Assembly: GCF_964355755.1 (NCBI RefSeq)
Contig: NC_092678.1
Span: 20,229,365 to 20,293,364, forward strand
Source: Antedon mediterranea
Taxonomy: Eukaryota > Animalia > Echinodermata
Length of the DNA stretch: 64,000 nucleotides
Direction of reading: 5' to 3'
The position numbers and the translations under genes were made by a program. The notes below the pieces were generated by a model. That model made no database searches and was not told the DNA's origin. It saw nothing but the letters and a program-made list of their open reading frames with translations. Shown one piece after another: positions 8,297 to 64,000 of the stretch (its first letter is position 1; every line of letters begins with the position of its first letter).

Positions 8297-10634
8297 CAAA
8301 GATCGTATAGCGCCACGTAGTGGCGCAAGATATGGAACTGACGCTCAAAAAATGATAATTCCATGGGCAGCCATTCCGGCAAGCGGATTACCCAGTAGGC
8401 AATGCGGCACGCCACCAAATCAATGAAAACAAATAGGATTTACATCTACGCGATAAACAGTACGACTTTATTTTATCTTTCGCGTCAAAATGAAAGAACA
8501 TCTATATAAAATTCGATTATATAAATTTACTCCATTTGATATTACACTTACATATGCGTATATCACTGTCCAACCTCAAACGGCTACAGAATAAACACTG
8601 ACTGTATGAAGGACGAATTTTGTAGGCAGTCGGTTGAGGCATAGTTATAAATAGTGTCGCGGGGCGCAGCGCGATGCTACGCACTTCACGCCCAAGGTCG
8701 GCCGCGTTTGGCCTAGGCTGGGATGATGGCTTAGTTTATGTGCGAGAGAAGCATTTTTTTGGAGATGAATTGTAATAATTGCCAAATATATTGTCCAAAA
8801 CTGTCTTTTTAATTTAAAAAAAAAAAAAAAATTAATGGGCAGGGGGATGTTCTTTCCCCTGTTCGGACCCTCTCTTTCTATTTTGTGTGCTTCAGGCCTA
8901 CAAAGTTATTTCATTGCAAGGGGAATTTTACTACGATCTGCCACAACTGTAGTATACTGTACAAACATTACTAGATACAAAAACAATTGTTACATTTTTT
9001 TAATTTCAAAAAAGTAAAAGTATTAAATATTAATTTTAAAAATTCATAATCATAATTTGTTCTTTTCAACCCACTTTTATTAGCTCAACTTTCAATATTA
9101 CAGACAGGATTAAAATGCAATAAAAATACTGAAAAATCTCACTTTATACAATATTAATAAATAATGATGGAATAATTAAATACACTCAATAAATAAATTA
9201 CGAATGTATGGTTTTAGCCTTCTTAAATACAAGGAAAATTCTATTATTTTGATTTCTTGTATTACAAAAGAAGCCAATAGGCCTAAACAACAGTACTGAT
9301 AATAACTGAATTCTGGTTATTTCCTTTCACTTAAAAGTATGAGGTGTGTGAAAATAGTGATTTTATTTGTAATCCCATAGGATACTGCTCCTTTTCAAGA
9401 ATCAAAAATATAAACTATTATTACTATTGAAATATAATTGTCCATCAGTTCTGGCCTTTGTATTTAATTCTTGTGTAAAATACCACTTTGCACTCAATCA
9501 TCTATCTTCTCAATTTTACAGTATGATGACAGACTTATATCTTTCTGAAATAGGGAAAAATATATCATTAAATTATTAGGTCACTTTTCGAACTGTTACA
9601 TAATCATTTGATTACTTATTATAGTATTTTAAAATACTATACATTTTTAAATTCAAAACAAAAGTCAATATACTATTTATTAATAATTGTAAGTATTCAA
9701 AAATGTTTACATTAATTAACTAAATAAATATGAGGATCAAATTTATAATTTAAATTTATTAAATAAAAAAAACAAACAATTCATTCATTCATAATAACAT
9801 TTATTTCTTATCATTTCAAAGTAAACAAAATAACAATTTAAATATAAATAATTAAGAGGCAACACCCAGAAAGTAATAACATTTGGAGGTTTCCCTCCAA
9901 AAAAACTTGTGACGGGTAGCCAGTTAAGAAATTGTAATCATATTGGAGTTTAAACAAACAGAAACAAAACAAGACAAACAAACATGTAAAGCAAGACAAC
10001 GACAAATTAACAACAATAACAACATCCTCACGATTTTTGATTTCATTACATTTAATTATTTCTGTTAATGTTATTATTAATAAAACGCTATATTGTCTTG
10101 TACATTTTTATTAAAAATTCCTAATTCCCGAACAGCTTCAGTTTTTTTCTTAATCTTCCATCCATCCAAGCCTTGTTTGATCCATCTATCATCAAGACGC
10201 CAATCAATATCATTCATCTCCCAGACTTTTTTTTATTAATCATACTAACTAAACTAGGCCTAGTATTCGGCATTAAATATGCCCAGGCCTACTACTACTA
10301 GTACTAGGCCCTAGATCGGATTGCGCAGAGAAACGCCTGCCTGAACTAAATTTAAACAACAATTTAATAATTTTGTTAATGTTTACTAACAAAAAAATAT
10401 ATATTCTAAAAACTTACCACTACAATTTACCCAATACAACACGAGAAAACTTCCCGAACAAACAATAACACGTCACACGTGGATGTGGTTCAATGGTTTA
10501 TTATACACTTCCGGGGTATGTGATCGCGTAACTTGCTTGCCGGAATGGCTGCCCATGGAATTTCACTCATGCGCAGTGTATAAGAGATAGGAGTTCCCTA
10601 TCTTGCGCCACTTCGTGGCGCTATAGTATCTTTG
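8297..10634. mobile_element. Non-autonomous P-element-like DNA transposon, 2338 bp
   Basis: Termini are CAAAGAT...ATCTTTG with imperfect ~90-bp TIRs (TATAGCGCCAC..AGTGGCGCAAGATA; AATTCCATGGGCAGCCATTCCGGCAAGC). A perfect 8-bp TSD GTGTAGCC lies at 8289-8296 and 10635-10642, and a single GTGTAGCC occurs at the equivalent site upstream of gene B. No transposase ORF. Confidence 0.85.
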
Positions 10635-10719: not shown

Positions 10720-13700
10720 ATGGCATTGTCTTATTGCACTATTATATTTATATTTATCCAATCATCAATAATTATAGTCAATTCAAGTCCAGTTGTTCAA
10801 ATTAAGGTAGGTGTATAAAACCCACTATGACTCTAGGCCTAGCCTAGGCCTAGGCCTAGTAGCCTAGGCCTAGCCCTAGGCCTACTACACTACTACTACT
10901 CAGTCTAGGCCTACCTTACCTACTAATAAGTAGCTAGCTAGGCGTGGCTAGCGTACTGGAACGGAGTACAGTACAGTGTAACTGTAGGCTATAGGCTCAA
11001 GTTAGTGGCTAAAAAGGCCTAGCTAGCTAGGACTAGGTAGCTACCTACAGTAGGCCCCTAGATAGTAGTACTGTACTAGGTATGTGGGACTGAGTTGACT
11101 GTCGGTGTCACCAAGTTTGATATTGTTGTGATTTTAGGTCGGTGCTGGAATGGCCTGATAATGAAAGCTACTAGGCTTACCTTAGCAGTCCCGCTTGTCC
11201 TAAATCACACAAGTATCCGAAAGCAGTAAATCCAAATATCTTGGTCAATTCCGGTTGTGTCCGTTTCTCCTTGGTTCCTGCTTCGAATAGATCGGTTCGG
11301 CCGGCGTCGAGGCCTCACGTTAACATTTGCATACCCCCTGTATGCAAATCAAGGTATCGGGGCGACGCCCTCGTTCGGTCGGAGGGGTGGTCTGTTTACC
11401 CAGCGGGCGCCGTTCACAACACTCCTCCCGTGTTTGAAAAGCGGGCACCCCGTCCTGGGTCCACCTCGGGGGTAAACCAGGTGATTTTCGTACGTGAAAA
11501 AATACCCGATACCCGTAGCTATGTAGACTGCTCCCAACGATCTCTTCAGATAGTCAATGGCCGTGGGACATGCCGGTAGCACCGTCCCCTGCTTCCGTCA
11601 GCAAACGGCACCTGGTCCCTGTCTGAGAGAGAAGAGAAAATAAACGCGAGTACCTAATTGTTAACCGAGGACTTGCAGTCCGCACATCGATATAAGTCGA
11701 TGTCCAAGGCCTCAGATGGTGCAATATTCACACATGCACCATGGTACCACACCTCGCAATAATCACATTGTATCATAAATAAGCCGGCCCAGGGCTGGCG
11801 ACATAGACAATACAACGGTCCTGCATCCGGATCTGTAGGTGAAGAGAGAGGGGGTAAATGAAAATCAGCCAGCCATTTGGGAAGTTGTCGATCCCGACAG
11901 GGCTTCAGCTTATCATGATTTAACACCACCATCTTATTTCTCAGCTGCACCTGAAATAAACAAGAACTAATAACGTTAGTAATAATACCGGGCCCCTTCC
12001 AGGGGGGACACAATTTCTTGCACTTCCCCCGAGGGGTAGCGTTGTCAAGAACGTAGACCTTGTCCCCGCATTGGTATGGACGTTCCAGCACTCGAAGATC
12101 ATAGTCCCGTTTCATTCTCTTCTGAGTCTGCTTTAGCGTATCCCTAGCGATGCCATGGGCATCACGGGTCGCTTTCACCAAATCTGCAACGTAGATAGCG
12201 GCTTCCTGCTCATCAGTGGACCGGCATTCTCCGAACATGAGATCAGCTGGTAAATTAACCTCTCGGCCCAGCATCAGCATGTTTGGAGTAAAACCAGTCG
12301 AGCGGTTCACCGTGGCGCGTAGTGCACCAGCAATCTGCGGGAGATAGACATCCCAGTCTCGTTGTCTCTTCCCAACGAAGCATCGTACAGCATCCATAAG
12401 TGTTCGATTAAATCGCTCTACTTGACCATTAGCCGACGGTCGGTAGCTTGTCGTCCGGGTCTTGTGGATCTGTAAAACTTTACACAAAGATGCAAACAAT
12501 TCACTCTCAAAATTTCTCCCCTGGTCTGAGTGTAACTGAAAAGGTACACCGAATCTAGAGAAGAAGTCCCTTACTAGGGCTCTAGCGGTTACCTCCGCAA
12601 CCTGAGACGGGAGCGGGCTGATCTCAACCCATTTTGTGAATTGGTCGACCATCATAAGAACGTAAATATTCCCCTGTTCAGTTTTTGGTAACGGGCCGAG
12701 GAAATCGATATGTACGCGTTCCATGGGAACGCCGGCCTGGAATTCAGTCAACCGATGTCGACCTTGCCGAGTAGCCTTCTTGCTTCTATTACAAATATTG
12801 CAAGTCTGTACATACCTCTGTATATCCCCGCCCATACCGTACCAGAAAAACTTCTCCTTCAATCGGAACTTGGTCCGGGCGACCCCTTGATGACCCGCCG
12901 ACGGCAAATCATGATGTAACCTAAAAGCTACGGCGTGTAGCTCCTTGGGCAACACAAGTAGTCGTCCGGTACCCTCTGCTCGGTTGATGAACAGTATACC
13001 TGCTTCCGTGAGATGCAAGCGTTGCCTGTTCAGCCAGTAGTGTTTGGTGGCAGCGCTGGAGATAAACAGCTGATTCTCGGAGGGTTCCCCATTCCGCAAC
13101 CAGTCCAGAACAGGTGCCAAGTCAGGATCACTCGTTTGATGTTGCCGTAGCTCATCTAGTGAGTAACCCCAACACTCGGCTCCCTTCGGCCGTAGCTGTA
13201 CTGCAGCCACTCGTCCACCATCATCGTCCTGTAGGAAAGAAAACTGAATCGTACCGTTAGTAGCAGTCCGTGATACCTCTATACTTACTTGTCCACCGGG
13301 GTCCCAAGGAACATCGTCCCCTGGCAGAGTACCCTCCAGGTGGTCCACGGCTACCTGGTGTACGTGCGCGATGGGCACAACGTCGTCCACTTCATCCTGG
13401 AACGCTGACCATCTCGCATCCGCTCGTTGACAGTACGAACAGCCCCCACAGGGAAGCCCTTCAAGCGCAGGCCGTTCGTGGCTACTGTTATGAGTTTCGG
13501 GTCGGCGAGACAGAGCATCAGCGTTGCCATGGTGTTGCCCTCGGCGGTGTTCAATCAACAGGTGGTACTGGCTCAACTCCTCGATCCACCGAGCGAGTTG
13601 CCCCTGTGGCTGCTTGAAGTTGAGGAGCCAGGTCAGGCTGTTGTGATCAGTCCGCACTCTAAAAGGTCTGCCCAGAAGGTAGTGCCTAAAATGCCTTGTC

Positions 13701-16700
13701 ATGAACACAATTGCTAGCAACTCCTTGCGTGTAGTGCAATAGTTCCGTTGTTCATGAGTTAGACGAGCACTTGCGTATGCAATTACCTTCTCCTTACCTT
13801 CCTGCACCTGGAGCAGCTCGCCTCCTAGCGCTTGATCCGAAGCGTCGACATCCAGAATAAATTCATCAGTCCCGTTCGGCAAGGCGAGTAGAGGAGGTTT
13901 AACGAGAGCAGCTTTCAGGTCGGTGAACGCTTGTTGTTGTTCCTCATCCCAGTGAAACTTCACCTCTTTTTTAGTGAGTTCATATAGAGGTGCAGCTAAA
14001 CCAGCAAAGTTCTCAATGAACTCTCTATGGTAATTAGCCAACCCCAAGAACTGCTGTACTTCTCTCAGATTGGTAGGTGTCGGCCAGTCTTGAACAGCCT
14101 TTATATCCGAATCGGACACTGCCACCGTATCCTCCCCAACGATTCGCCCTAAAAATTCAACCTGTTTCTGAAAGAAAACACACTTTTTAGGTTTAAGTTT
14201 AAAGTTGTTAACACGAAATCGCTGCAGAACCTGAGAGAGGTTGCTGAGATGATCTTCAAACGTTTTACCTAGCACGACAATATCATCGAGAAATGCCAAT
14301 ACCGTATCCCACGCCAATCCCCGCAGCACCAAACCCATGGCACGGGAGAAGGTTGCAGGACAATTGGTAAGACCAAATGGCATTTTCACGAATTCATACA
14401 GGCCATGCTTGGTGATAAACGCTGTCTTCTTACGGTCTTCATCCTTCATCTTAATCTGCCAGTACCCCCAAATCGCGTCCAGTTTAGAAAACCAGATATT
14501 CCCCGACAGTGTGTCAAGGCAATCACGAATCAGAGGTAATGGATACGCATCTTTAGTCGTGATGTTGTTGAGAGCTCGATAGTCAATGCAAAAGCGCACA
14601 GAACCATCACGCTTCCGGACCAACACAGGCGGTGACGCCCATTCAGACATGGATGGTTGAATAACACCAGCCTCCAACATCTTCTTTATCTCCTTTTCCT
14701 CCTCCCCCACAAAGCGCAGAGGAGTATGGCGGAGCCGTTGCCTGATCGGTGAGGCATCTCCAGTGTCGATGCTGTGTTCAATATCACCAAAGGTGCCAAT
14801 GTCGAACTGATGAGCGGCGAAGACATCCTGGTAATCAACCAATAGTTTAGTGAGCGCGTCAGCCTCTTCACCTGAGAGATTAGATCTCGAAGAGTCCAAC
14901 ATGCCCACTAGGTGCGCCGGCACCCCCTCGGGTTGGTTACCGTCATCGTCCGCTTGATTCGACAAAGCATCCTCGGACGGAGTCACCCCCGTCTGGAACA
15001 CACTCACCCCTTCAGCTTCCCTGGCCGTACCTATCTGTCTACCCTTTTTCATAGTAAGATAGTGATCAGATGTGTTGATGACACAGATGCATGGCGCATC
15101 AGTGCGTAGATGTAAAGTTGCCGGTATCGCCACATCGTCAGTAGTTGGAACTGGCTCTATAAAGAAATCAGGCATAGATACATTGTTAGTCACAAGTTTA
15201 CATTTAACATGAGCGGCTGAGTGAGGAGGAATTACTCTCCGTTTAGCCACCGTTACCTGGGCAACCCTAGGTTCCACCGGTGAATCCCCTCTTAGAGATA
15301 TGGTACTGCCCCCAATTGCCAAAAGCAAATTTCCACAATCGATAACGGCTCCCTGTGGATGAAGAAAATCACCACCCAAGAGCATATCGTCATTGATGGG
15401 GGCAACATAAAAGAATTCATGGTACTCTTTGGTTCCCAATGTAAATTGTAGCGGCCCCACCTTCGACCCTGGCATAGATGTCCCCCTCCCTGCCAAAGTA
15501 AAGGACAGGGTGGACACCACAGGTGGTGCCGGATCTAGACTTTTATAAACCTTATCGGATAGTATGGTAAAATCCGCTGCAGTATCCACGACTGCGTCAA
15601 TTTTGGTACCATTGACAAAAGCAGTTGCATGCAACGCATTCAATGATTTTACCCTATTGATAACAATCCGGGTTTGAGTCTCTTCAGTTTTGGTTGTCGT
15701 CGGTGTAGATGATTCAATCAGCCCTGAGCTAATTGCAGACGGCTCAATGATCGTCACAGGATCCGGCGCTACCCCCTCTGTATTTACAGGCTTGGCCATC
15801 GGGCCTAGCTTGGGGATAGTCGACGAATCATCCTCTTTCTGGCCAGCTTCTGGAACCGGGTTAGGTCGTCGGCCCTCTGACCCAACCCTTACTCGTTTAA
15901 CGGATCCGGCTCATTGCCACTAACCTGACGCAAACGGCTCGCTAATCTCGGACACTCCCTGCGGAAGTGTCCCACCTCCTTACATTCAAAACAAGCCAGT
16001 TCGCCTGGTTTCAGGAAACGCATGAGCTGATCCAATTGATTCCGCATGGCGGCAATCCCCGTGTTCACGGTGTTCTCCACCCGTCCCAGATTGGTATTCA
16101 ACGTCTGGAAATTACCCTCCACAGTAGCCAAACGGGCTTCTGTAGTAGGAGTATTGTTGGTGGGTGGCACCGACGTCACAGTTCGAGGCTGGTTCTGGCC
16201 GTCAGTAGGTGCGGGTTCCGGAGGAACCCAAGCTGGTGCTGGCCTTTGAAACGTTACACGGTTTCCCCTCATAGGCCTCCCTCGCACCTGCTGAATGGAC
16301 ACCTCATCGCCAGTTTCACCCTCGGTATCGTCCTGGTCTTCTGAAGGTAGCTGAAAAGATAGTGGGGGTGCAAAAGAAGTACGGACCGTGGACCTAACAT
16401 GAGGTTTCACGGTATCCTTAACCTTACTCTTACGTTTACTATATAACCCCCTATAACTATCATATTTTTCAAACTCCCTAATAGCTCTGGGAATAGTTGA
16501 ACAGTGCTTGTGCATGACATGCCTACCTACTTCCGCATCCCTGCACCCAATGCAAAACCTAACTACGGCCTGCTCTTGGATCCACTCCTTGGGTAAATCC
16601 TTAAACGCCTTTCTAGTCAAGGTTAGCACTCTATCTCCCCATTCCTCTATAGTCTCTCCCTCATTTTGCGTAGCAGTCTCTAATTTAGCTTGGAGGACTG

Positions 16701-19700
16701 CGGGGAGCTCGTCCTCACTAAAACGTCGGTTGAAAGCTTTACTGATCTGCCTAAAGCCCAAATCAGCGTCCATTTCTATCAGATTCACATAGAACTCAGC
16801 CGCCGCCCCGTCTAAACACCAAGTAAGGACGTCCTTACTTTCACGGTTTGTGAGTTCCTGCTCCTCTATAAATGAAGCCAACCGCCGCTTAAAAAAGGAC
16901 CAGTTGTCTCCCCTCCCCCTAAACGTTAGAGACCTAGGTATATCTTTTTTACGCATCCTCCTACGTTCTAAAAAACCCTGCCGGCCTTCATAGTGCCTGA
17001 TTCTTGGGGTAGCCCTAAGACACTCCACTGCTGTCCTAGCCCCTGCACTATGTCTATCCGACTGTCTATCCGACTCTCTACTCCTGCTACTATCAGTATC
17101 AGCACCATCCCCACTAAGGTCACTATCGCTGGCTGATGGAGATCGCCGGCGAGCCCTAGTTTTAGACCTAGCGGTTTTAGATAGTCTCCTGGGGAGTCTT
17201 TCCTCCTCGTCCTCCCTAGAGCTAAAACACGAGTCTAAGGTTATCGGAGATGGCTTTTTGATGTAGCTCCTACGTTGTGTTGACCTATTCTTACTCCTAT
17301 CCTGGTCAGAACGGCCAGCGAAGGTGGATGGCGTATAAGCCCCAAGCCCACCTTCGAGATAACGAGGAACACTAACAGGTCCTGTAGTATAATACGTACC
17401 TGGTACGTCTAATAAAGGAGTAGCCTGGGGCGATGAGAGGACGTGGTATCGACCACTATGGCCCCCGTCATTTTTCCCCCGATATGCCCCTTCCATACCT
17501 ACAGATTGTGAGACCTGCGACCCCTTTCTGGCCGCTCTATTTTGCTTCTCCACTAGAGGTGACACATTATCAATCATCTGGCCTACGCCTCCCCCTAAAC
17601 TCGGATTCGGCTGAAAATCCAGGTAGTCCACCAACCTGGCAGTACCAGCTACTCCGTGTATCTGATTAATATTAGAGGGCGTAATGTTGCCATGGGTAGC
17701 CCGCCATTTAATTATTCTAGTTGCTCGTTTCTTCCCTACATTAGGGACTCCATGAAGATCTTGCACTGGGCAAAAGTTAACTAGAACCTTATTAGACGAC
17801 ATGATCTAAAAATCGTCTCTCTTCTATTGGGTTGTTATGCTCCTTAATCTAGTTACAGTGTATGGCAGATGTTATTAAGCAAAGAGTACGATACAAATTA
17901 AAATACCGCCAGACGTAATAAAAATTACAGGCCCAACAGTAGAATAAAATATCGTCAATGCAGTAACACACACACAATATTGCAAAATGGTTGTTGGAGA
18001 TGCAAATATAATAAAATATTTCACCAGCAAACCTGCAATGAGAAACAACTAGATTATTCAAAAAGACGTCAATACAGTTTAACAACACTTACCACTAAAC
18101 CTTCCCCCGATGCAAAGAAAGGAGAGCGATAATGCCACTGTGAGGTTAACACAATAATACGCACAGCCAATATAATTTCTCAAGATGAAAAACCTGACTG
18201 ACGGACGAAAAAGATGTTATCAATAAAAAACAATCAAATTTAAAATTAGTGGTGCCACTCAGTTCAACGGCCACGCCTAGTACCCTACCAGGTGATACGG
18301 CCTAATAAACTGTCCACTAATCCTTCAACTATAGCAAAATAAATACAACTCCCGGTACGCATCGACTACCCCGTCGATACGCTAATCAGCAAGTATCCAA
18401 ATGCCACAATACTGCGTGATTAACTTTACCGGTATGTTGTAATCTTCAATAAATATACCAACTTCAATAAACTAACAAATGCACCGTAAGTAAGTTAATA
18501 GTTTCAGCAGAGGACGAAATACCTCGCAATCAACCCGATCACGTTAAGAATGCCAGCTGGCAATCAAGGCACCCGCCTCCCCACCAAAAAAAAAGATTTC
18601 CGAGCTTTTGCTCGCAGCGCCAATGTTGTGATTTTAGGTCGGTGCTGGAATGGCCTGATAATGAAAGCTACTAGGCTTACCTTAGCAGTCCCGCTTGTCC
18701 TAAATCACACAAGTATCCGAAAGCAGTAAATCCAAATATCTTGGTCAATTCCGGTTGTGTCCGTTTCTCCTTGGTTCCTGCTTCGAATAGATCGGTTCGG
18801 CCGGCGTCGAGGCCTCACGTTAACATTTGCATACCCCCTGTATGCAAATCAAGGTATCGGGGCGACGCCCTCGTTCGGTCGGAGGGGTGGTCTGTTTACC
18901 CAGCGGGCGCCGTTCACAACAATATGGATGGACCATGGAGGTATACCTCCTTGTTGGATGGACCAAATTAACTATCTTCGATCTCTAGCTAGGCCTGGCT
19001 TTGTATTGTGAATTGTGTTGTTTGTAGCCTATCTACTGATATAAATTGTTCCTAATCTTTAATTTATTAACAGTCATAGTCATGCTAAATCTTCGCCCGG
19101 TATATACTGTAGGGCACTATTTAGTCTTATTCTAACCTTTTTATAGATATATTTTTCTTTTTTAAAATAAATTAAAATATTGTTAAACTTTTCATTCATC
19201 GCATCAACAACAAAACATAACAAAATACAAAATCATTATTTTCACATTTTTTTATTCAAAAAGTTTATAAAATACAATTAAAATAATTAAATGTCACAAT
19301 AACATTAAATATTATGTTAGCATATAATTGTACTTAATAACATTTTATATCATATACCGGGCAATACAGGGCAAGAATTAGCATGACCCAATTAATTAAA
19401 ATATTTATATTAAATTAAACCTACCTAGGGCCTTATTTATAGGTAATTATCATCATTAGATTAGATATTACAGTAATTTGCTGTTTTGGGTAGAACATAG
19501 AAATATTATAGTTTTCTATGAGTATACTATAACTAATAATACAAACGACTCATATGATGTACAATGATGTATACTGTAATCAACCAATCAAAGGGTGAAA
19601 ATTCAATGCTTGGTATCTTTGGTTTAATTGGCAGAAATGACATTACAAATACAAATTACACTATAAAAACCAGGGAGTTGTAAAATAACCAGGGAGTTGT

Positions 19701-31700: not shown

Positions 31701-32777
31701 AAATTGTTTTCATATGTGAACAAGGAGCATTGTATGTTTTGCTACAGCAAACCACTATTCATGGGATTTCCTTAATAATGGGACATTTTGTTTATTTGGT
31801 AAATTAATTGTATTTGATGATATTTCTATTGGTTTCTTCTTATTTTTGCAAAAAAAACCCCAAAAAACAGGATTATGTTTAATCATAATCACCAATAAAT
31901 TAATATTTTTAAGCTTCTCTGTTCCTTCTTATTTTGTCCCAAATAGCGATGACATATTCCTCGTTTATAATGAATGATATATTCACAATGTTTATAATTT
32001 ATAAATTATTTTATAGGTTATTTTCGTGGCAAGGACTGGACAAAGCAAAGCACATGGCAAGGGATCTGGGATATTATGTTAGAAAACGACTATGGAAGTT
32101 TTAGACAACTAAAATTAGCTTGCGGCACTGTAGAGCTACAACAACCTCGTCTTGATGGTGTACAAAGATGTCCGTATTTTAACCCTTCAAGTCATAGTTT
32201 GGATCAAGATTCAGTACCACGGATGAATTCACAGTGCGAAAATCGAAAACCTGTTAGTGTTCCTCATGGGGTTAATTGTTTATTTTCTGCCGCATCTATT
32301 ATTTATTCTGGTTCAGAAGATCATTTCCTTGAGTTAAAACTACGAACTGTTATTGAGTTGACCTATCATAAAGATTATTATTTGAATCAAGAAACACTTA
32401 TCCATTGTATAAAAGCGGAGTATGCACTGAGTCCAGAAGAGAACATTAAATTAACCAAACCCAAACATATAGAAGCACATTTTGAAAGTTTAGTTCGGAA
32501 AACATTAGGCAACCAAAGCGATTTCAGCCTACTGGGAAACTCCATCCATTTGTTCGGCCTTGCCTCAGTTCTAAACTGTAACATTCAGTCCATTTACCCT
32601 ACGATGCGTGCATCACAACAAAGCCCTTTAAATGTACTTATTACTCCACGTAAAAAGGAGATAGAAGATCCAACAACTGTTTTCATTATGTGGTCTAGGC
32701 ACACACCATTGCCTGAAGATGGACAGTTTGTTCCTAACCACTTTGTCCCTCTTCTTCAAATACCAACCACACATTAG
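10720..32777 (+). CDS. Gene A: TNF-receptor-superfamily death receptor with C-terminal vertnin-like OTU domain (17 coding exons, ~779 aa)
   Basis: Hand-built model, all introns GT-AG and frame-consistent. Exons: 10720-10806 (signal MALSYCTIIFIFIQSSIIIVNS), 24718-24823 and 25813-26064 (Cys-rich, C.DGTFS...C..C..C......DCTREKDTVCEC), 26337-26468 (Thr/Pro stalk), 26961-27068 (TM), linker exons 27358-27444, 27641-27667, 28323-28340, 28532-28618, 28789-28824, 29734-29772, 29866-29889, 30008-30043, 30469-30642, then 30765-31052 (death domain), 31181-31258 and 32017-32777 (OTU-like). Micro-exon use is inferred. Confidence 0.85.
11124..11421 (-). repeat. 3' LTR of Gypsy element 1
   Basis: Direct repeat of 18624-18921. 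On the minus strand it is preceded by the polypurine tract ACGGGAGGAG (11422-11431). Confidence 0.97.
11654..15901 (-). CDS. pol: Gypsy Pol: aspartic protease, RT, RNase H, integrase and C-terminal PHD finger
   Basis: Motifs: AVVDTAADFT (PR); WASPPVLV, RFCIDYRALN, MPFGL, AFLDD (RT); DASD, KELLA, TDH, NADALSR (RH); HH..H..C..C, HIDFLGP, SDQGRNFES, NGQVERFNRT (IN); WKGP; then a C4HC3 PHD. The frame stays open upstream of ATG 15799 as far as the slippery site at 15895-15901. Confidence 0.97.
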   Translation of the reverse strand, partial: VKRVRVGSEGRRPNPVPEAGQKEDDSSTIPKLGPMAKPVNTEGVAPDPVTIIEPSAISSGLIESSTPTTTKTEETQTRIVINRVKSLNALHATAFVNGTKIDAVVDTAADFTILSDKVYKSLDPAPPVVSTLSFTLAGRGTSMPGSKVGPLQFTLGTKEYHEFFYVAPINDDMLLGGDFLHPQGAVIDCGNLLLAIGGSTISLRGDSPVEPRVAQVTVAKRRVIPPHSAAHVKCKLVTNNVSMPDFFIEPVPTTDDVAIPATLHLRTDAPCICVINTSDHYLTMKKGRQIGTAREAEGVSVFQTGVTPSEDALSNQADDDGNQPEGVPAHLVGMLDSSRSNLSGEEADALTKLLVDYQDVFAAHQFDIGTFGDIEHSIDTGDASPIRQRLRHTPLRFVGEEEKEIKKMLEAGVIQPSMSEWASPPVLVRKRDGSVRFCIDYRALNNITTKDAYPLPLIRDCLDTLSGNIWFSKLDAIWGYWQIKMKDEDRKKTAFITKHGLYEFVKMPFGLTNCPATFSRAMGLVLRGLAWDTVLAFLDDIVVLGKTFEDHLSNLSQVLQRFRVNNFKLKPKKCVFFQKQVEFLGRIVGEDTVAVSDSDIKAVQDWPTPTNLREVQQFLGLANYHREFIENFAGLAAPLYELTKKEVKFHWDEEQQQAFTDLKAALVKPPLLALPNGTDEFILDVDASDQALGGELLQVQEGKEKVIAYASARLTHEQRNYCTTRKELLAIVFMTRHFRHYLLGRPFRVRTDHNSLTWLLNFKQPQGQLARWIEELSQYHLLIEHRRGQHHGNADALSRRPETHNSSHERPALEGLPCGGCSYCQRADARWSAFQDEVDDVVPIAHVHQVAVDHLEGTLPGDDVPWDPGGQVSIEVSRTATNGTIQFSFLQDDDGGRVAAVQLRPKGAECWGYSLDELRQHQTSDPDLAPVLDWLRNGEPSENQLFISSAATKHYWLNRQRLHLTEAGILFINRAEGTGRLLVLPKELHAVAFRLHHDLPSAGHQGVARTKFRLKEKFFWYGMGGDIQRYVQTCNICNRSKKATRQGRHRLTEFQAGVPMERVHIDFLGPLPKTEQGNIYVLMMVDQFTKWVEISPLPSQVAEVTARALVRDFFSRFGVPFQLHSDQGRNFESELFASLCKVLQIHKTRTTSYRPSANGQVERFNRTLMDAVRCFVGKRQRDWDVYLPQIAGALRATVNRSTGFTPNMLMLGREVNLPADLMFGECRSTDEQEAAIYVADLVKATRDAHGIARDTLKQTQKRMKRDYDLRVLERPYQCGDKVYVLDNATPRGKCKKLCPPWKGPGIITNVISSCLFQVQLRNKMVVLNHDKLKPCRDRQLPKWLADFHLPPLSSPTDPDAGPLYCLCRQPWAGLFMIQCDYCEVWYHGACVNIAPSEALDIDLYRCADCKSSVNN
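15858..15901 (-). promoter_or_regulatory. Predicted -1 ribosomal frameshift signal between gag and pol
   Basis: The minus strand has G_TTA_AAC, a 6-nt spacer GAGTAA, then a 10-bp stem GGGTTGGGTC/GACCTAACCC. The -1 frame reads RVRVGSEGRRPNP...LGPMAKPV directly into Pol. Confidence 0.85.
15889..17802 (-). CDS. gag: Gypsy Gag with N-terminal helix-hairpin-helix motif and C-terminal CCHC knuckle
   Basis: 637 aa. N-terminal VNFCPVQDLHGVPNVGKKRATRIIKWR, an Arg/Ser-rich linker, a capsid-like region (TFRGRGDNWSFF...ATQNEGETIEEWGDRV) and CFECKEVGHFRREC. Confidence 0.95.
   Translation of the reverse strand: MSSNKVLVNFCPVQDLHGVPNVGKKRATRIIKWRATHGNITPSNINQIHGVAGTARLVDYLDFQPNPSLGGGVGQMIDNVSPLVEKQNRAARKGSQVSQSVGMEGAYRGKNDGGHSGRYHVLSSPQATPLLDVPGTYYTTGPVSVPRYLEGGLGAYTPSTFAGRSDQDRSKNRSTQRRSYIKKPSPITLDSCFSSREDEEERLPRRLSKTARSKTRARRRSPSASDSDLSGDGADTDSSRSRESDRQSDRHSAGARTAVECLRATPRIRHYEGRQGFLERRRMRKKDIPRSLTFRGRGDNWSFFKRRLASFIEEQELTNRESKDVLTWCLDGAAAEFYVNLIEMDADLGFRQISKAFNRRFSEDELPAVLQAKLETATQNEGETIEEWGDRVLTLTRKAFKDLPKEWIQEQAVVRFCIGCRDAEVGRHVMHKHCSTIPRAIREFEKYDSYRGLYSKRKSKVKDTVKPHVRSTVRTSFAPPLSFQLPSEDQDDTEGETGDEVSIQQVRGRPMRGNRVTFQRPAPAWVPPEPAPTDGQNQPRTVTSVPPTNNTPTTEARLATVEGNFQTLNTNLGRVENTVNTGIAAMRNQLDQLMRFLKPGELACFECKEVGHFRRECPRLASRLRQVSGNEPDPLNE
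18606..18622 (-). promoter_or_regulatory. Primer-binding site of Gypsy element 1 (probably tRNA-Ser)
   Basis: TGGCGCTGCGAGCA begins 1 nt after the 5' LTR. It is complementary to a tRNA 3' end ...TGCTCGCAGCGCCA, which resembles metazoan tRNA-Ser. Confidence 0.8.
18624..18921 (-). repeat. 5' LTR of Gypsy element 1
   Basis: Direct repeat of 11124-11421 at an offset of exactly 7500 bp. Confidence 0.97.
19670..19785. repeat. 19-bp tandem repeat x5 plus one inverted unit
   Basis: CCAGGGAGTTGTAAAATAA five times, then TTATTTTACAACTCCCTG. Confidence 0.9.
19826..21384. mobile_element. Non-autonomous DNA transposon, 4-bp TSD (Sola2-like)
   Basis: TIR GGGTCATTCTTCAG.AAGTGTCTAA / TTAGACACTT.CTGAAGAATGACCC with AATA on both flanks and internal TCCGTCAC repeats. 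It is absent at the homologous site of gene B intron 1 (~41420). A partial inverted copy lies at ~38890-39280. Superfamily call is tentative. Confidence 0.8.
21403..21640 (-). mobile_element. tRNA-derived SINE
   Basis: The minus-strand head GAGTGAGTGGCCGAGCGGTTAAGAC...GGGTTCGAGGCTCACTCACTCCA carries Pol III A and B boxes, followed by a body and a (CAAT)n tail. It is absent from gene B intron 1. Confidence 0.8.
23968..24613. mobile_element. MITE (PIF/Harbinger-like)
   Basis: TIR GGGTATGTTCAGAC.CACGG.GT / AC.CCGTGTGTCTGAACATACCC; flanks GTA and TTA. Confidence 0.65.
25813..26064 (+). CDS. Gene A exon 3: TNFR cysteine-rich repeats
   Basis: Phase-1 reading (D)GTFSSGEVGEYCENCHNCLHGEDKIKDCTREKDTVCECPYGKYITSFSTCVPCDECNEKDCKIVC, with AG/GTAAGT borders. 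The ORF track shows the wrong frame here. Confidence 0.9.
30765..31052 (+). CDS. Gene A exon 15: death domain
   Basis: HILNIAPHIGKEVTRMGLKLNFTNGEMETIEHKHDSDLLKQNLVVLQQWVEKTGVHAKKGVLAQALDDVGKAEFA fits the death-domain helical pattern (L..W...G..A....L..AL...G). Confidence 0.88.
32017..32777 (+). CDS. Gene A last exon: vertnin-like OTU cysteine-protease domain
   Basis: PVSVPHGVNCLFSAAS....GSE....ELKLRTVIEL......Y, then HLFGLASVLNCNIQSIYP, IMWS and PNHFVPL. Confidence 0.88.
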
Positions 32778-40441: not shown

Positions 40442-43400
40442 ATGGAATTGTCACATTTCACTATCCCTATTATATTTGTATTTATTCAATATTCTATCAT
40501 TTTAGCGAGTCCAGTTCAAATTAAGGTAGGTGTAAATAATCATATCCGACCAAACTAGAGGCTAGGCTAGGCCTAGCTAGGCCCTAGCCTTTATTAAGAA
40601 GGCTCGTATAGGGCTTAAAGTATTAGGACTAGGGCCTAGGTAGCGTACCCAGGACTAGTCTTTGGCCAATTGGAATACAGTACTAGGCCTAGGCCTACTG
40701 CTAGCCTACTGTAGGTTTAGATTGGATACTGTGGTATAGGGCCTACTGTAGATAGCTAGGCCTAGGCCGTGGCATGATTTTAGGTTGACTTGACTGACTG
40801 GCAAATTTAGATGGTTTTGGTTGGGATGGAACTTATTATGTGTTCATTCGAATAAAATACAAATAGTTAGTAGGACTAGACTGTGGGCCCTAGCCTAGCC
40901 TAGTGTATTAGTTTTATTTCATGATTTATATTGTATTATTTATCATGACTGTAATTAAAAACAAATGTTTTTACTGTATGTAACAACAAAAAGAAAACAA
41001 TTTTATCGCATTACACTAACAGTAAAAAAAAACTTTGCCAATCCATCCCCAACATCATAATGCTTTGTAATTATAGTACAGTACTTCAAAATACAAATTC
41101 CATGAAATAAACAGAGTTTTGTACAAATCTACTTTTAAAAAACCAGTTGCACTAATATAAAACTATTGTTTTTTTTATTTTTTATTTTGTACACTATTAT
41201 TAAGTCAGAGAATAGTGATACTGTATTAAATATCACCTCCGATATATTAATTACATTTCCATGACACAATTAAATTATGTATTATGTGTGGTAATGTTTG
41301 AACATTTTTTCATTATTAAAACCACATATGCTGATGTTATGATTTAATTTGATTGACAGACCTCGAAACAAAACAAAAATACACATTAGAAAAACCACCT
41401 GGAAAGGAAACGCCCACAGTACATTGCTCACTGACAGGATAATATGCTTTAACTTAAGTACTGTTTTAAGAAACGTGAATGTTTAAACAACAAACAATAA
41501 ATATTTGATAGGCTAGTTATTTTTCAAAGCATCAATCAAATAATTAAAAAAAAACATCGTAGATAACAGTTATTTACAACACTTATAATTAAAGATGTAT
41601 TGTCCCCCTGAAAAATGTTTGACTTTTCTTTTGTTGAATATGCCATTAGATGTCACATAATAGTTATCCACTTTGACCATACAATGAATGATAAATGATT
41701 AAATGTTCAGCTGTTTGGAAACTTTCTGATTGACTGATCAGAGTTTGAAAACCCAACATGAGTGTGCGTTGTATAAAAATGTTCTACTTTGCTACCAAAA
41801 TTGAAGCGCTTTTTTCAAGCCTATATCCTCATCCTAACAGATTATTAAAATTTAATTTTAAAAATATTTGACATTTTAGAACAGTAAAAAATAATTAAAT
41901 AAATAAATGTTTTGTTGTTGGAAAGAATATTTCATTTGTTGAACAATTGTTATGATTGCCTTCTAAATTTGTTTCTGTTTAAGTTTTCTTTATGATTATC
42001 ATTTCACAAACCTTGACCTCATTTTTGTGTGTCAAAAGTTATAATAAAAGAAATTTCTTCTAATTGTTCGTTATGACCACAAGAATACACAAGGGAAGAT
42101 CGTGTATTGTTTAAGCTTCAATAAAATTCCCTACTCTGTTATTGTTAAATGAACCTGTAGCAGGTTTACAAAGTTACTCTAAAAGTACTGATACACAGTG
42201 ATAATAATAATTGGGAAGTATAAAAATTTTAAATTTTATTTAATATAAATGTTGCTAAAAATGGTTAATTATACTGCAAAGTTTAAAGTCTGGTTCTTAT
42301 TCTCTTCCTTCTGAATAAGTTGTAGTTGACACGCAGAGCTACAGTATACATTTCATAAAATATTTTCCACCAAATTGGGCGTGTTCCACAGGGTCAATTT
42401 CAAGGTCAAAATATCGCTCAGTTTCATCCAACACAAGAGTACACAATACTATACAAAAATACCTCAAAATCGGACATGTATTTCCAGAGATATAACTATT
42501 TAAAATGTGGCAGCCACGCCATTTTTCAAAAATAAAGAAGAAAATTTAAACTTTAATATCTTGAAACCACTAGTCCGATGAAGTAAGCTTTACTCGGTAA
42601 GGTAAGATTTAAAATGTATTTTTTGTGTGAACTGAGTTTAAATGACCCAACTTCTATTTTTTTTTTAACACACGCTTCACATTATAATATACAGTACTTA
42701 ACTGTAAAAATAATGCTTTTAATTTGAATATTTAAAAGAGAACATTGTAAATTAATTTTTTTTACTTTAGGCCTACCTGTATCTTTTTGGTTTATAGGTG
42801 AAAAGATCAGTAGATATCTGCAGAGACGTTGAGTGCCCTCCTGGGTACCAGTGTTGCGAGGGAGATAGAGACGCTTGTGGTGGAAAAGCGTGTGAGCCAT
42901 GTATAGGTAATGCTATATTTGTAATAAAATTGTTATTCTTTAAAAAAAAATGCAAACATTCTCATGGTCAATAGAATATTTGAAAAGCTTAAATGATTGT
43001 AATTTATAGTAAAAACAAATGTGTATAAAATGATATGTCTGGAATTATTACTGCCTTCTCTGATTCAACAGATTGAGAAATTATCAAATCCAGGATGCCT
43101 ACTGGAATTGGGGTAATTTTGCTCTAACTAACATAGACTAGTTGTTTGGCAGATTGTTTTTCACTGTCCAGCAAAAAGGAGGCAACCATTGTTTACAAGA
43201 CATACAGTCTTTTTGTCAATGATAAACAGTCTTTCCTCTCGGACAATACATGATGTGAACCTAGGTCCCTCTTAACTTTAATTATAATAGAAATTATTTA
43301 TTGTTTTAAGATGAGGAAATCTGTGAGATATTATTATTATTATTTATGGTATCTGTTATTTCATAGAGATCTATGGTTATTTCCATATTATTAAAATACA

Positions 43401-46400
43401 GTGACAGCCAAAAGCTGAAATAAAGTATCTTTTAACAATTAAAAATTGGATAAATAAACAGCAATAGTATTCTGGCGCTTACTAAATACTAAAAACAATA
43501 TAAAAAACTCAACAATGACATTCACTAATACAAAAATATCAATATCTATGTAAAATATCATTATCATACAATATTCACATTATCACAATTTATGAATTAA
43601 AAATGGGTAACATTATTATTGTATTCATATTATCATTGTTATTTTAAAAATCAATTCTATAAGTCTATATTGCATTCATTTCATTTCTTAGCTATATTTT
43701 ATGGTCGCATTTGGTTTGTTAATAATAATTAATAAAACTTTATTTAATCACGGTAACACTTGTTCACCTCAATGGTGTTTTTCGACAAGGCTGTAAAACA
43801 TTATACACAAATCAAATTTAACAATTAAACAATTAACAGCAAGAGTTTATCTTTAATGATTTACACTTAAATTAGAATGACTTAGAATTTAACAATAGAT
43901 TGTAAAAGCCAATTTTACAAAAGAATAAACATCAAAATGAACAGAGCATATTTTTACTTAAATAATTAAACTTAATACTAAAGATATTAAATAAATTATT
44001 AATAAGAATTTAACTATAAAAAAACTGTTTTGAACCTCCAGCGCAGTGGGAGGAGAAAACGGAGGGAATGCCAGGGTTAGTAACACCATTGATAATCAAC
44101 CCTGTCATTCAAAAGACGGGTGAGATAAGGTATTGGACTGTTAAAATAAGGTATTGGACTGTTAAAATAACGTGTTGTTTTGCATTTATATTCCTGATAA
44201 TTGCTTTCTGAACGCCACTGCGCTGGAGGCCCGCTTAAAAAAATTTTCAAACATGGTTGTTTTTTTTTACATTAGACACAAACGATCGATCATGGTACGG
44301 TGGAACAACACTAGTTCTGTAGAGAGATCAAATTGAAAAGACCTCACATTTCAATTCATCAATTCATGAATATAATAAAACCACCAAGTACAATTGTTAA
44401 GATGCCCTTATGTTCTTTTTTATAAGATAATATGGTTACACTTTTACATTCCTAATTTAATTAATTGTTTTGTCTCAACAGATGGAACATTCTCTTCAGG
44501 TGAAGTTGGAGGAATCTGTCAGAATTGTCACCATTGTCTCCATGGCGAAAACAAGATTGAAGAGTGTACTCGTGAAAAAGACACGGTTTGTGAATGTCCA
44601 TATGGTAAATATATTACTAGCTCTCGCGTATGCTTATCGTGTGAAAAATGCGGTGAAGAGGACTGTAAAAAAGTGTGTAATGTAACGACAACACCAAAAC
44701 CGCCAGCACGAACAACAACGCAAAAAACAACAATACCTGGTAAGTTTCAATTTATCATAAACTCATGATCTATCCGATTTAAGCAAAACATCTTTGGTTT
44801 TTTTTAAATATTTTTCTGCTATTTAATGTTTATATTTCGTTGTTTCTTTATTTATTATTCCTTATTTGTCCTTTTTTACAGCCGAAACCACAGAACATCC
44901 TACCGACCCAGAGAAGAAGAGTTCTCCGTGGAAAAATATATACCTTCTGCCGATTCTATGTAATAAACTTAATATAGTTTCTGATAATTTCACATGTAGA
45001 ATAATAACTACTAGTTTACTGTAGTGTTACTTAAATAACTACACATTTTTTTATTTTTTTTTTAACCAATCTCTTTGTCTATGTGTACATACAGACACAA
45101 TATAAAAACAAAAATCTAGTTAAATTACTCCATAAAATTTACTGCAGAACTTCACATTTTTCTTGCAGAAGTCCTAACTCCTTGTAACTGTATGAAATCA
45201 TCTTTTTAGTTATCCGCATTGAGCGGATAACTCCTTGTAACTGTCCTGTTTCATCATCTTTTTTTTTTTTTTCTGTATTCTTCTTTCTTTCTGTCTTTTT
45301 TGTGTCTCGCGTAACTCAAAAACGTGTAAACATAACATTTCATAACTTTGTCAACATGTGGGCATTTACGTGAAATTGTGCACCTCCTATTTTTGAATGA
45401 CGTCAGAGTTGCGCAACATGACTTACGCGCGTTTTTCCGAATTTCGCGTATTTAACATAGATCGAAAACCATATAACAATTTAATATGAAACTTGACAAA
45501 AGTTTAAGTTATATCTTGCGCTAACTGACTATGGGGAAAAAATGGCATGTTTCACACGAAGTTACGCGCGCACGCGTGTTTAAAATTTCAAAATGCGAAA
45601 AATCAATTTCTAATCAACTTTCTACGCGTTTCATGTAATTTTAAGCATGTACAAAATTCCCACGCGCGCGCCTTTTTTTACGCGCATGGTGCGAACGTAG
45701 CGTTGAAAACACTTTTTTTTGTGTGATTTATGTTTTTTCAGCCTTTTCTAGTAATTTTACCAACTTTTAAACAATTTCGATTTAAAATTACGTCATACGG
45801 GCACGTTGAATTGAATAATTTACGTGCGTTTTTTATGAAAAAGTTAAAAAATTTGTCAAAATTCGTCAAAATTATGCCTTTTTTTAAACAGTCTAAACAA
45901 CGAGGTGAAATTTTTTTAAATTACAAATTCTTGAAGTTGATGAGTTGTAGATATGGGATCATGAATCAATATGGCTAACCGGACATTGTGACGTCATCAT
46001 ATGGCCACACGAATGAAAAATATAGGATTTTTGTCTCTTTCGTTATTGCTCATCATATTCAATGGAGCGCATCACGCCTATCTGTATTCCTTTTTCTCCG
46101 AGATTTTAATATTGTCTAGGTCAATCAACTATCTTTCGCATGAGTTAAAAATATTTTAATTTTTATGACGTCATCATGCCTAAAAATTATAATTAACAGG
46201 GTTATTAATTTCATCTTTACAGTAAATTTTAATCTGTTATAGCTCGTAAGAATAAAAAGTGATAATTATGATAAAAACGTTTTCTGGAAGCTATTGGACT
46301 GTAGATACGAATTAATGTGAACATTTTGCCAATCGGATGTTGTGAAGTCATCCTATGGCCAGTTGAATAAAAAAAGTCGTATTTTCATATTTTGCGTCAT

Positions 46401-59043: not shown

Positions 59044-59101
59044 ATTTTATTTGAACATATTATGAAATAATAGAATGTCTTATATCAAAAGTAAAAAATA
59101 A

Positions 59102-60650: not shown

Positions 60651-61217
60651 AAAGAAAATTACAGTATTTAATAAGATATAATATAGTAATAATATTCTGT
60701 ATACCTATAAACTATATTTAATAAAGGCAACTTAACAACAGGATGCTGAATGAGCTCCTCCAGAGATCAATGGGTTTATCTGTGGCTGTGATCAAAGGAC
60801 TGTTACGAATTCCTATCTTTGCAAGGCGATCTTGGTGTCCTGCTGTTGATAGATTGTCTACAGAGTGGGGCCGGGAGGGCCTTTTTTATTCTGACCACAT
60901 TAAGTCCCAACCCACCAAGAAGAAGAGTTTTCTTAACTAAATTGTTTGCATACTATTTCCCCATATAAAATAGGCCTAGGCCCCTATGTACGCTCTTAGG
61001 CCAATTGGCAAAAAAGGTAGGACCTAAGCTACTAGTAGGGCTAGGGCCTATGTCTATACTTCTAACTACTGACATCTTAGTCATCATTAATATAGGTTAG
61101 ATAGTATAGGCCTAGCTCTGAATGCCAAACCTAGCTAACTAGGCCCTAGGCCTACTACTGTACTATTACTAGCCTAGCCTAGTAGTTGTGGCATAATAGG
61201 CCTAGTTAGGACTAGGG

Positions 61218-61749
61218 TGTGTGACCGAAACGGCCGCCAACATTTTCTATGGGACGCCAATACAGTATTATAAACGTACAGTAAAGCCTATGAAACCATG
61301 ATGGAGGAACAAATAAATGAAACCAACCAATATATGTTTAAGAATAAAATCAAAGAATAAACGTATTTTTTAGTTAAGTTTTTATTAAAATAATGTTTAT
61401 TATAATAATTCACCATTCTGAATTTATTTAACGTATTCAAACAAATACTGTATCAATTATTGAAGTTGAAATAGGCAAAACAGTCGGCGGCCGTTTTTAA
61501 TAATATTATAATATTTAATGTAATGTAAAATTAAAATAATGATAATTAAAAACATCTATCTGTTAATATTTATTAAGTCACATACGTCTAAAGTCAGTTC
61601 AATCTGAAAAAAAAAGTAAAACAATTGTATTAAACCACACGTCGTTTTGATTACACGTTGTTGACAAACGGCACACGCGGCGTTTCATACATTCAATTGT
61701 GTTTTAATTGGCGGCCGTTTCAGTCGGCGGCCGTTTCGGCAGTAAACCA
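61218..61749. mobile_element. Degenerate TIR element with GGCGGCCGTTTC subrepeats
   Basis: CCGAAACGGCCGCC at the left and GGCGGCCGTTTCAGTCGGCGGCCGTTTCGG at the right. Confidence 0.45.
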
Positions 61750-61948: not shown

Positions 61949-64000
61949 TGTTGTGAAAGGGGTCTCGCGCTTGAATACCCGGTCCAGTTTGCTCATTTGC
62001 ATGTAAATCAGCTGGTTGAAATGCATGGTTGACCCCACCAGGATAGGCTAGTTAGCTCACTTGATGTCTGGACCCCATGTAGGAAACATGCTTGATGCAT
62101 AAGAGTACCCTGTACTATAAACAGTATTTACCCTAGAGTGGTACTGGACATTGAGTCTCTGTAGTGGTTTAGGTACTGCGGGACTGAATAAGGTGAGTGT
62201 ATTTGCTTGCTTTAGTAGGCCATTTCAGTGCTAGCCTAAAATCACAACATTGGCGCTGCGAGCAAAAGCTCGGAAATCTTTTTTTTTGGTGGGGAGGCGG
62301 GTGCCTTGATTGCCAGCTGGCATTCTTAACGTGATCGGGTTGATTGCGAGGTATTTCGTCCTCTGCTGAAACTATTAACTTATTGTACTTACGGTGCATT
62401 TGTTAGTTTATTGAAGTCGATATCTTTATTGAAGATTACAACATACCGGTAAAGTTAATCACGCAGTATTGTGGCATTTGGATACTTGCTGATTAGCGTA
62501 TCGACGGGGTAGTCGATGCGTACCGGGAGTTGTATTTATTTTGCTGTAGTTGAAGGATTAGTGGGCAGTTTACTAGGCCGTATCACCTGGTGGGATACTA
62601 GGCGTGGCCGTTGAACTGAGTGGCACCACTAATTTTAACTTTGATTATATACTGGCTGTGCGTAATATATTGTGTTAACTTCACAGTGGCATTACCGCTT
62701 TCCTTTCTTTGCATCGGGGGAAGGTTTAGTGGTAAGTGTTGTTAAACTGTATCGACGTCTTTTTAATAATCTAGTTGCTTGTTATTGCAGGTTTGCTGGT
62801 GCAATATTTTAACTGTATTTGTATCGCCAGCTGCCATTTTGCAATATTTGTGTGCGGGTTATTGCATTGAAGATATTTTATTATACTGGTGTGCTTGTAT
62901 TTATTACTACGTCTATCAGTATTTTAATCCATATTGTATTCTATGCTAAATAACATCTGTTATCTCACACTGCAGCTAGTTTTACCACACTGAAGATCGT
63001 AAAGTGTTACTACAACTTTTATTCCGGGCCAGTCTGTTTTCTTCTGGAAAGCTTGAAGACTGTTCACGTGATTTGTGACTTCAACTTCACACGCTGATTA
63101 TCACTGCCTTTCTGTGGAGGGGAGTGGTCTGGTGATCAGTGTTCGTTGAGCATTACCAAGATCTGGATTTGAAGTATCGTCATCATTTGAATGCTGTGCA
63201 ATTGGTGAATGTATCACAAATGTTTTAATAGTTTTATGTCCATTTTAATAGTACAGGCATTGGTATTTTATGGCATTTTACATTCCTAGTTTATACACAG
63301 TATTCATCTTAAACCGGATAAGTACTAGTGGCAGAACATACATTTAGATACATTTTAATGAAAGTCTTTGACCTCTGGCAATACTTTTATATCGTATGTT
63401 TTAAAGGATGCCTCATGTTGCAATAAATTTCTGGACAGAGCCGGAGCTCGTCCATCTACTAGGAAAGAGAGCTAGGAAAATTACTGATTGGAGGTCCAAA
63501 TTTGGAAATATTAGAGCCTGTGACTTAGAATATTTAACTGGAATCAAGTGCTTGTCATCCAAAACGACTCGCTGGGATTTCACACCGAATCCTCAATTAG
63601 TGAGTAGTTGGGTTCAGAACACTAGCACTCCTCAGTTGTTCCATGCAGCACAAGTTCCATTTGGAACTTATTCTGGTGATTTACCTGGTGGTAGTTTCTC
63701 ATGGAGACACACCAGTACCAACCAACCTAGTTCTGACCACAGAGAAAAGACGGATTCAGGTTGTAGGAATACTCACTATAGGTATGCAACCAAAGCAGAA
63801 TGTCAACCAATATCTGAACTGTTAGCTTTAGACTCTAGTCTTAATGTACGGGGTCACCATTGCACTAAAGGTAGTAAAACCTCAAAAACTAGATCTGTGT
63901 CTAAGCTTTGTAGATTACTGACAGAGGATTGTTTCAGTGACTCTTCTAGTAGCTCTAGTCTTATGGACTCCAGCTCTAGTAATGATGAGAGTTGTACAAG
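61949..64000 (+). mobile_element. Second Ty3/Gypsy element (5' part; runs off the window)
   Basis: A 301-bp LTR TGTTGTGAA...CCTAAAATCACAACA (61949-62249), the same PBS TGGCGCTGCGAGC, a leader near-identical to element 1, and a gag-like ORF from 63408. Confidence 0.9.
63408..64000 (+). CDS. gag: N-terminus of a divergent HhH-Gag (open to window end, missing from the ORF track)
   Basis: Hand translation MPHVAINFWTEPELVHLLGKRARKITDWRSKFGNIRACDLEYLTGIK...WDFTPNPQL has no stop for 197 codons. It aligns with element-1 Gag at NF, GK.RA..I..WR...GNI and DF.PNP.L, then enters a Ser-rich linker. Confidence 0.85.
   Translation, partial: MPHVAINFWTEPELVHLLGKRARKITDWRSKFGNIRACDLEYLTGIKCLSSKTTRWDFTPNPQLVSSWVQNTSTPQLFHAAQVPFGTYSGDLPGGSFSWRHTSTNQPSSDHREKTDSGCRNTHYRYATKAECQPISELLALDSSLNVRGHHCTKGSKTSKTRSVSKLCRLLTEDCFSDSSSSSSLMDSSSSNDESCT

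Follow-up and report, generated by a model that had tools for sequence, protein, structure and literature searches.

A PHD finger predicted to read H3K4me3 at the end of a Ty3/Gypsy integrase in the echinoderm Antedon mediterranea, with a possible role in promoter-proximal insertion

Integrases tipped with a chromatin reader have been described in several kinds of mobile element. Chromoviruses, Gypsy elements such as MAGGY, carry a chromodomain, associated with H3K9 methylation, after the GPY/F-containing C-terminal domain (CTD) of the integrase (bioRxiv 10.1101/2021.11.30.470311, PMC6673714), and the CopiaMBD elements of arthropods bear a host-derived methyl-CpG reader on a Copia integrase, the associated DNA being repressed and both binding and site bias having been tested (PMC6673714). 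Reader-guided LTR integration has been documented for repressed chromatin, through the chromodomain and the MBD. Active chromatin has been reached with readers that are engineered or supplied by the host in trans: the ING2 PHD finger fused to the integrase-binding domain of LEDGF moved HIV-1 integration to start sites, and in the MLV-BET system an active-chromatin reader is likewise held on the intasome, with start-site integration (PMC8149907). Grau-Bove et al. (bioRxiv 10.1101/2021.11.30.470311) report that, of the readers that occur in fusion with transposon domains, PHD and Chromo are the most frequent, and that cnidarian retrotransposons exist with PYGO-like, H3K4me-reading PHDs. Furthermore, Ginger1 DNA transposons combine a Gypsy-like integrase with C-terminal extras, which in one family are Ulp1 and PHD (PMC2836005). 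The PHD finger is a widespread accessory domain of transposons, for which a targeting role is suggested and none shown (PMC6673714, PMC8557442).

The element considered here lies in a stretch of 64,000 nucleotides of the A. mediterranea contig NC_092678.1 (positions 20,229,365 to 20,293,364, forward strand), hereafter the window. Its features are as follows.

11124-18921, minus strand: intact Ty3/Gypsy element, recognised by its LTRs, target duplication and open gag and pol frames
18624..18921, minus strand: 5' LTR, 298 nt, TG...CA, its 3' part containing a splice-donor-like site
11124..11421, minus strand: 3' LTR, identical in sequence to the 5' LTR
11120..11123, plus strand: target-site duplication ATAT, second copy at 18922-18925
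18610..18623, minus strand: primer-binding-site-like (PBS) stretch starting with TGG and adjoining the 5' LTR
15889..17805, minus strand: gag ORF, 638 aa, with Retrotrans_gag, zf-CCHC and an N-terminal helix-hairpin-helix whose match scores under the Pfam cut-off
15858..15901, minus strand: likely -1 frameshift site, a slippery heptamer followed by a hairpin, pol lying in the -1 frame to gag
11654..15910, minus strand: pol ORF, 1418 aa, uninterrupted, PR-RT-RNaseH-IN-PHD
11876..12949, minus strand: integrase, residues 988-1345, with H2C2 zinc finger, DDE core, GPY/F motif and beta-barrel CTD
11675..11815, minus strand: C4HC3 PHD finger at the Pol C-terminus, residues 1366-1412, from Pfam, phmmer, family alignment and AlphaFold
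11422..11429, minus strand: polypurine tract

The Ty3/Gypsy assignment rests on the TG...CA LTRs, target duplication, PBS, polypurine tract, gag, PR-RT-RH-IN order and GPY/F motif, all of which are present. As in chromoviruses a histone reader follows the CTD of a Gypsy integrase, but here it is a PHD zinc finger with methylated H3K4 as its predicted ligand; the same combination of Gypsy and PHD separates the element from CopiaMBD. Unlike the ING2-PHD/LEDGF and MLV-BET readers, the finger is encoded in cis on the integrase. Compared with the cnidarian PYGO-like fusions, it ranks with PHF2, BPTF, CFP1 and DIDO, and no PYGO chain is found among the best 60 PDB matches. Ginger1 elements have terminal inverted repeats and neither RT nor LTRs, whereas the window element has direct LTRs, an RT and a PHD directly after the CTD; a Ginger1 identity was ruled out by the LTRs and RT.

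The hairpin of the frameshift site is no stronger than in shuffled sequences (z -1.2), and no tRNA gene matching the PBS lies within the window. Contigs of run X1 have a depth of 23 over the unique right flank and of 384-537 over near-identical internal pieces, which suggests a family of some tens of copies, contig depth not being equal to copy number. Moreover, the contigs of runs X1 and X5 that span the right flank from 18922 continue with 77 and 94 letters, respectively, of non-LTR DNA, a pattern that fits an empty allele. Given this pattern and the identical LTRs, the insertion is probably very recent. Other LTR junctions are visible in the contigs only as mixed loose ends, no relative was found among viral contigs, and the search for an RNA record containing the sequence gave none.

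Pol had been said to end in a complete C4HC3 finger at the position where chromoviruses carry a chromodomain, and both statements hold. Indeed, the 47 residues of the finger are followed by six more before the stop and lie in frame after the integrase zinc finger, DDE core and GPY/F-CTD, with a linker of about 20 residues between CTD and PHD; no Chromo match was obtained in the window Pol at E 0.01, the PHD being in place. The Pfam PHD match (E 2e-7) is better than the curated cut-off, and phmmer against the PDB places PHF8 first (E 1e-16), then PHF2, KDM7A, BPTF, CFP1 and DIDO, down to 1e-11. An AlphaFold model of the integrase, built with 66 sequences, gives the finger a pLDDT of 90-96 and the linker one below 50 (pTM 0.46), and in overall fold the model is matched best by the foamy-virus (PFV) and Ty3 integrases. 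When the PDB was searched with the family profile, PHF2, BPTF, CFP1, PHF8, KDM7A and DIDO came on top, with six host families within 7 bits. The earlier label of PHF8/BPTF-type is thus adequate for a class (PHF2/8-BPTF-CFP1-DIDO) and not for a single type, no one donor being singled out. Likewise, a PHD phylogeny, which had been proposed as a route to the host donor, points to no single family, the 53-column tree being unresolved and including few named hosts. A protein search with the PHD alone returned three matches, retroelement-like or unnamed, and zero host proteins.

The residues expected to form the ligand pocket were located by alignment to PHF8, PHF2 and KDM7A.

Y1367, W1374, M1379 and W1388, within the PHD finger: cage residues
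D1383, within the PHD finger: acidic residue

All four cage residues named by the sequence-only reading are found in the window copy, as are all eight C4HC3 zinc ligands, each of these positions being kept in 74-76 of 76 family PHDs. H3K4me3 readers are described as having a Tyr-Met-Trp cage and an acidic Arg2 pocket, and the PHDs of PHF2/PHF8/KDM7A, BPTF, CFP1/Spp1, DIDO/PPS and TAF3 have them in common with the window finger, together with the C4HC3 spacing (PMC3241642, PMC8246079), BPTF having a Tyr where the window finger has Met. Across the 76 family PHDs, whose counts are inflated because they were chosen by similarity to the query finger, M1379 and W1388 are each kept in 76/76, Y1367 is aromatic in 75/76 and D/E1383 is found in 73/76; the corresponding figures for 34 divergent representatives are M1379 30/34, W1388 32/34, Y1367 aromatic 30/34 and D/E1383 28/34. 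By alignment and family counts the H3K4me3-reader layout (invariant Trp, Met, N-terminal Tyr and acidic Arg2 pocket) is therefore present, and we predict with good confidence, from these residues, that the window finger binds H3K4me2/3. The second aromatic, W1374, is on the other hand no family trait: this fourth cage position, Trp in the window finger, is Asp in 32, Trp in 20, Tyr in 11 and another residue in 13 of the 76, Asp being the residue found in TAF3 (PMC3241642, PMC8246079).

This variation bears on an explanation that we consider quite improbable, according to which the choice of gene starts is real but is set by open chromatin or by a host protein on AGGCCT-rich tracts, the PHD recognising a different ligand or a lower degree of methylation. 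An Asp in the fourth cage position (32/76) could favour H3K4me2, as in PYGO1, and some PHDs bind non-histone proteins (PMC3241642); against another ligand stands the conservation across the clade of the Tyr-Met-Trp cage and acidic Arg2 pocket, the layout that defines H3K4me3 readers.

Loss of the finger from most relatives, a prospect raised by the sequence-only reading, is not what the relatives display. With the end of Pol as query, 50 matches were obtained, of which 38 are retroelement proteins that include a PHD and 12 are proteins of host type. An independent RT-RNaseH search, of which the best 120 of 2478 proteins were taken, comprised 98 relatives at >=60% identity and 22 below. Of the former, 33 are cut short before the integrase CTD is complete and 65 extend to its end, and the PHD is kept in 61 of these 65, at 60-70% RT identity; the other four end 7-35 residues past the CTD, two of them within the first PHD residues. 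None of the 22 relatives below 60% identity, within the same best 120 of 2478, has the PHD. Among the best 150 cluster representatives (50% identity), 74 have CTD and PHD, in 12 the match is confined to the PHD, 28 continue in a long tail that contains no PHD, and 36 do not extend far enough for a decision. Gastropods, bivalves and a sea urchin make up the named hosts of the matches, among them Nucella, Haliotis, Ostrea, Saccostrea, Pinctada and Diadema. The PHD is a clade-wide conserved trait and a real in-frame fusion. Elements of the clade also occur in records labelled as bacterial MAGs (L018, L019; P0011, P0086), most likely as host contamination.

These counts weigh on the notion that the PHD is a captured host fragment riding along without function. 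The existence of PHD-less relatives speaks for such a passenger; against it, besides the in-frame retention in 61/65 relatives, conservation of the finger is on a par with that of the CTD, the linker being far more variable (majority-residue fraction over 65 PHD-bearing rows: PHD 0.68, CTD 0.66, linker 0.28). Furthermore, 23 of the 40 variants listed, out of 803 in all, fall in pol, and 18 of the 23 are synonymous, including both in the PHD. Conservation of the residues largely refutes a functionless passenger, which we regard as hardly credible.

The relationship between PHD-bearing and PHD-less elements was examined with an integrase tree of 65 rows (43 with PHD, 12 without and 10 outgroup), for which one in four of the close rows was taken. 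Rows with and without PHD fall together in a single group with an SH-aLRT of 100, and this branch splits them from the 10 outgroup rows, which include the chromodomain-bearing Pol P0067, in a tree built without curated reference elements. The PHD label changes four times on the tree versus 18.3 in shuffles. In an RT tree the 105 close rows form one group versus the 22 far rows with a support of 0.26, the far rows not being the nearest relatives. Given the four label changes and the occurrence of this CTD in relatives that lack the PHD, which make up at least 28 clusters, the PHD is not essential for the wider lineage. At the end of 18 of the 28 long-tailed PHD-less representatives there is an Arg-rich motif, which is found in 0/150 PHD bearers. 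An acidic stretch together with the Arg-rich motif terminates PHD-less sister integrases such as P0214, P0227, P0231, P0254, P0263, P0284 and others.

The Arg-rich tail resembles an unspecific signal for chromatin association or nuclear import, and the alternation of PHD and tail lends some weight to a reading in which the PHD does bind methylated H3K4 but serves as a general grip on chromatin, with little effect on where copies finally lie; nuclear retention, capture of accessible nucleosomes or action on the element's own LTR promoter after insertion would be variants of it. PHD binding has consequences that differ with the host complex (PMC3241642), and non-targeting roles of a captured reader were raised by de Mendoza 2019 (PMC6673714). 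However, the engineered H3K4me3-PHD tether of the intasome did shift sites (PMC8149907), and both LTR insertion sites in the window adjoin tracts of the kind that follow first exons. On balance we judge a general grip possible but unlikely.

The reading that we prefer is that the finger guides tethering of the integrase to H3K4-methylated promoter nucleosomes, to which, as the whole explanation, we give a probability of roughly 45%. Pol would be made by a -1 frameshift and then processed by the protease in such a way that the integrase retains the PHD; the finger would hold the intasome on H3K4-methylated, promoter-proximal nucleosomes, and such tethering would shift insertion toward start sites and first introns. 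If H3K4me2/3 is bound, we put such a bias, by analogy with the HIV-1 tether, at slightly better than even odds, and promoter targeting is on the same analogy plausible. The engineered ING2-PHD tether is its strongest support from outside, whereas the frequency of PHD fingers on transposons for which only a suggested targeting role exists, and the PHD-less members of the wider lineage, speak against it. Tf1 targets promoters. To call the mechanism the opposite of heterochromatin-seeking chromoviruses, as the sequence-only reading did, is too simple, since Tf elements sit in euchromatin (PMC8912903).

The insertion site itself is defined by two neighbouring features.

10720..10806, plus strand: coding part of exon 1 of gene A, signal-peptide-like, 29 aa, of a TNFR/death-domain gene
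8297..10634: separate DNA transposon, 2.3 kb, flanked by an 8-bp duplication and with terminal inverted repeats of about 44 nt

Intron 1 of gene A contains the element in antisense orientation, and the distance of 317 bp from exon 1 that had been given is exact, the exon ending at 10806 and the LTR starting at 11124. The exon also proves to be real, as a paralogous signal-peptide exon at 40442-40525 has the same donor and exon 2 (24718) is in phase; later exons of gene A match TNFR_c6 and Death. CpG observed/expected is 0.31 beside this insertion versus 0.78 in host DNA, a low value that counts against promoter-guided insertion. The DNA transposon, which is multi-copy and lacks any ORF of 150 aa, reaches to within 85 bp of the gene A ATG on its upstream side, so that the true start of gene A may be about 2.8 kb from the element. 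As this transposon without a long ORF lies in the same promoter region, the region accepts insertions anyway, and a single insertion is weak support for promoter targeting; the transposon also favours a site determinant other than the PHD. The target word of the DNA transposon is also present upstream of the gene B start. Two tandem TNF-receptor-like genes occupy 10720-33000 and 40442-55000, with signal peptide, cysteine-rich repeats, Ser/Thr stalk, a likely membrane segment and a Death domain, and each is followed by a long open frame (31998-32777 and 53928-54734), the second with a weak OTU protease match (E 0.008).

A second, related element enters the window at its far end.

61949..62249, plus strand: 5' LTR of the second element, with the same LTR ends, PBS and leader

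Over 874 nt, with LTR ends, PBS and leader in common, it is 83.5% identical to the first element; a diverged HhH-type gag begins at about 63405 and is cut by the window end, pol, and with it any PHD, lying beyond it. A splice-donor-like site is found in both LTR types of the window. The U3 region of the second element (61949-64000) differs from that of the first, and it is possibly a recombinant or a partner family.

Tracts rich in AGGCCT/TAGGCCTA are found at 10820-11080, 40560-40900 and 60980-61900, that is, after exon 1 of both genes and flanking both LTR insertions. Such DNA beside both LTR sites is what a host protein on these tracts would predict, and counts in favour of a determinant other than the PHD; the occurrence of these tracts after first exons also agrees with the PHD-guided reading. 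In 500 bp, 22 and 8 motif matches were counted, values that are reached at 0.5% and 3.5% of positions, in a comparison of two sites only and with a motif chosen after viewing both. No title among the literature matches listed for TAGGCCTA concerned the motif at animal promoters.

Relatives of the element differ from the window copy downstream of pol. By tblastn, a third ORF behind a splice-acceptor-like site is found in 14 of the 15 distinct related loci in which pol is followed by more than 1.3 kb. The features concerned are these.

L002:2051-4432, L003:8558-10993, L004:4063-6318 and 11 more: third-ORF loci
11623..11644, minus strand: splice-acceptor-like tract after the pol stop in the window copy

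The three intact third ORFs tested are 751-811 aa long and have a TatD domain at their end (E 1e-31 to 1e-36). There is no third ORF at 11422-11644 in the window copy, only 232 nt separating the pol stop from the 3' LTR. Since the acceptor is kept without the ORF, and contigs of runs X5 and X9 diverge from the window at 11592, the window copy has probably lost the TatD ORF. No usable flank pairs or target duplications were obtained from the 19 related loci (L017 and L019 being the same DNA). Judging by title and start of abstract, no paper among the matches listed for TatD with retrotransposons deals with such an ORF.

PHD-transposon fusions have already been published, and the present case is a further variant of reader-tipped integrases. 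No description of a Gypsy integrase with the C-terminal PHD of this clade was found in a literature search that lay outside Repbase, GyDB and most subscription journals, although Supplementary Table 6 of Grau-Bove et al. may list the clade. Term look-ups in PMC13524379, PMC8556966, PMC5408684, PMC2997562, PMC5890265 and bioRxiv 10.64898/2026.05.21.726589 gave no description either, and the term PHD is absent from the main text of PMC8556966, consulted in connection with the named animal Gypsy clades Mag, A/B/C, MolGy and PolGy, and of PMC5890265. Taken as a whole, the picture of a Gypsy clade, old and active to this day in molluscs, echinoderms and related animals, that has its own H3K4me3 reader, inserts beside active promoters and has a spliced TatD-nuclease gene as its third is tentative and falls somewhat short of even odds. 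If true, nature would have arrived, with a reader encoded in cis, at what was engineered when HIV-1 was retargeted by a PHD. For marine invertebrates, a clade with an active-mark reader would be a continuing source of variants in promoters and first introns, the gene affected here being a receptor of immune type. Since PHD-bearing and PHD-less lineages share the integrase, the targeting question is directly testable in genomes with H3K4me3 maps, the PHD-less sister lineage being a built-in control.

Two further repeats lie in the window. A 472-aa reverse transcriptase frame of a non-LTR-type element is found at 57628-59046 on the minus strand, and a 1.5-kb CpG-rich repeat is present in three copies that are 78-88% alike (45278-48329 and 59089-60558), two in tandem and one inverted.
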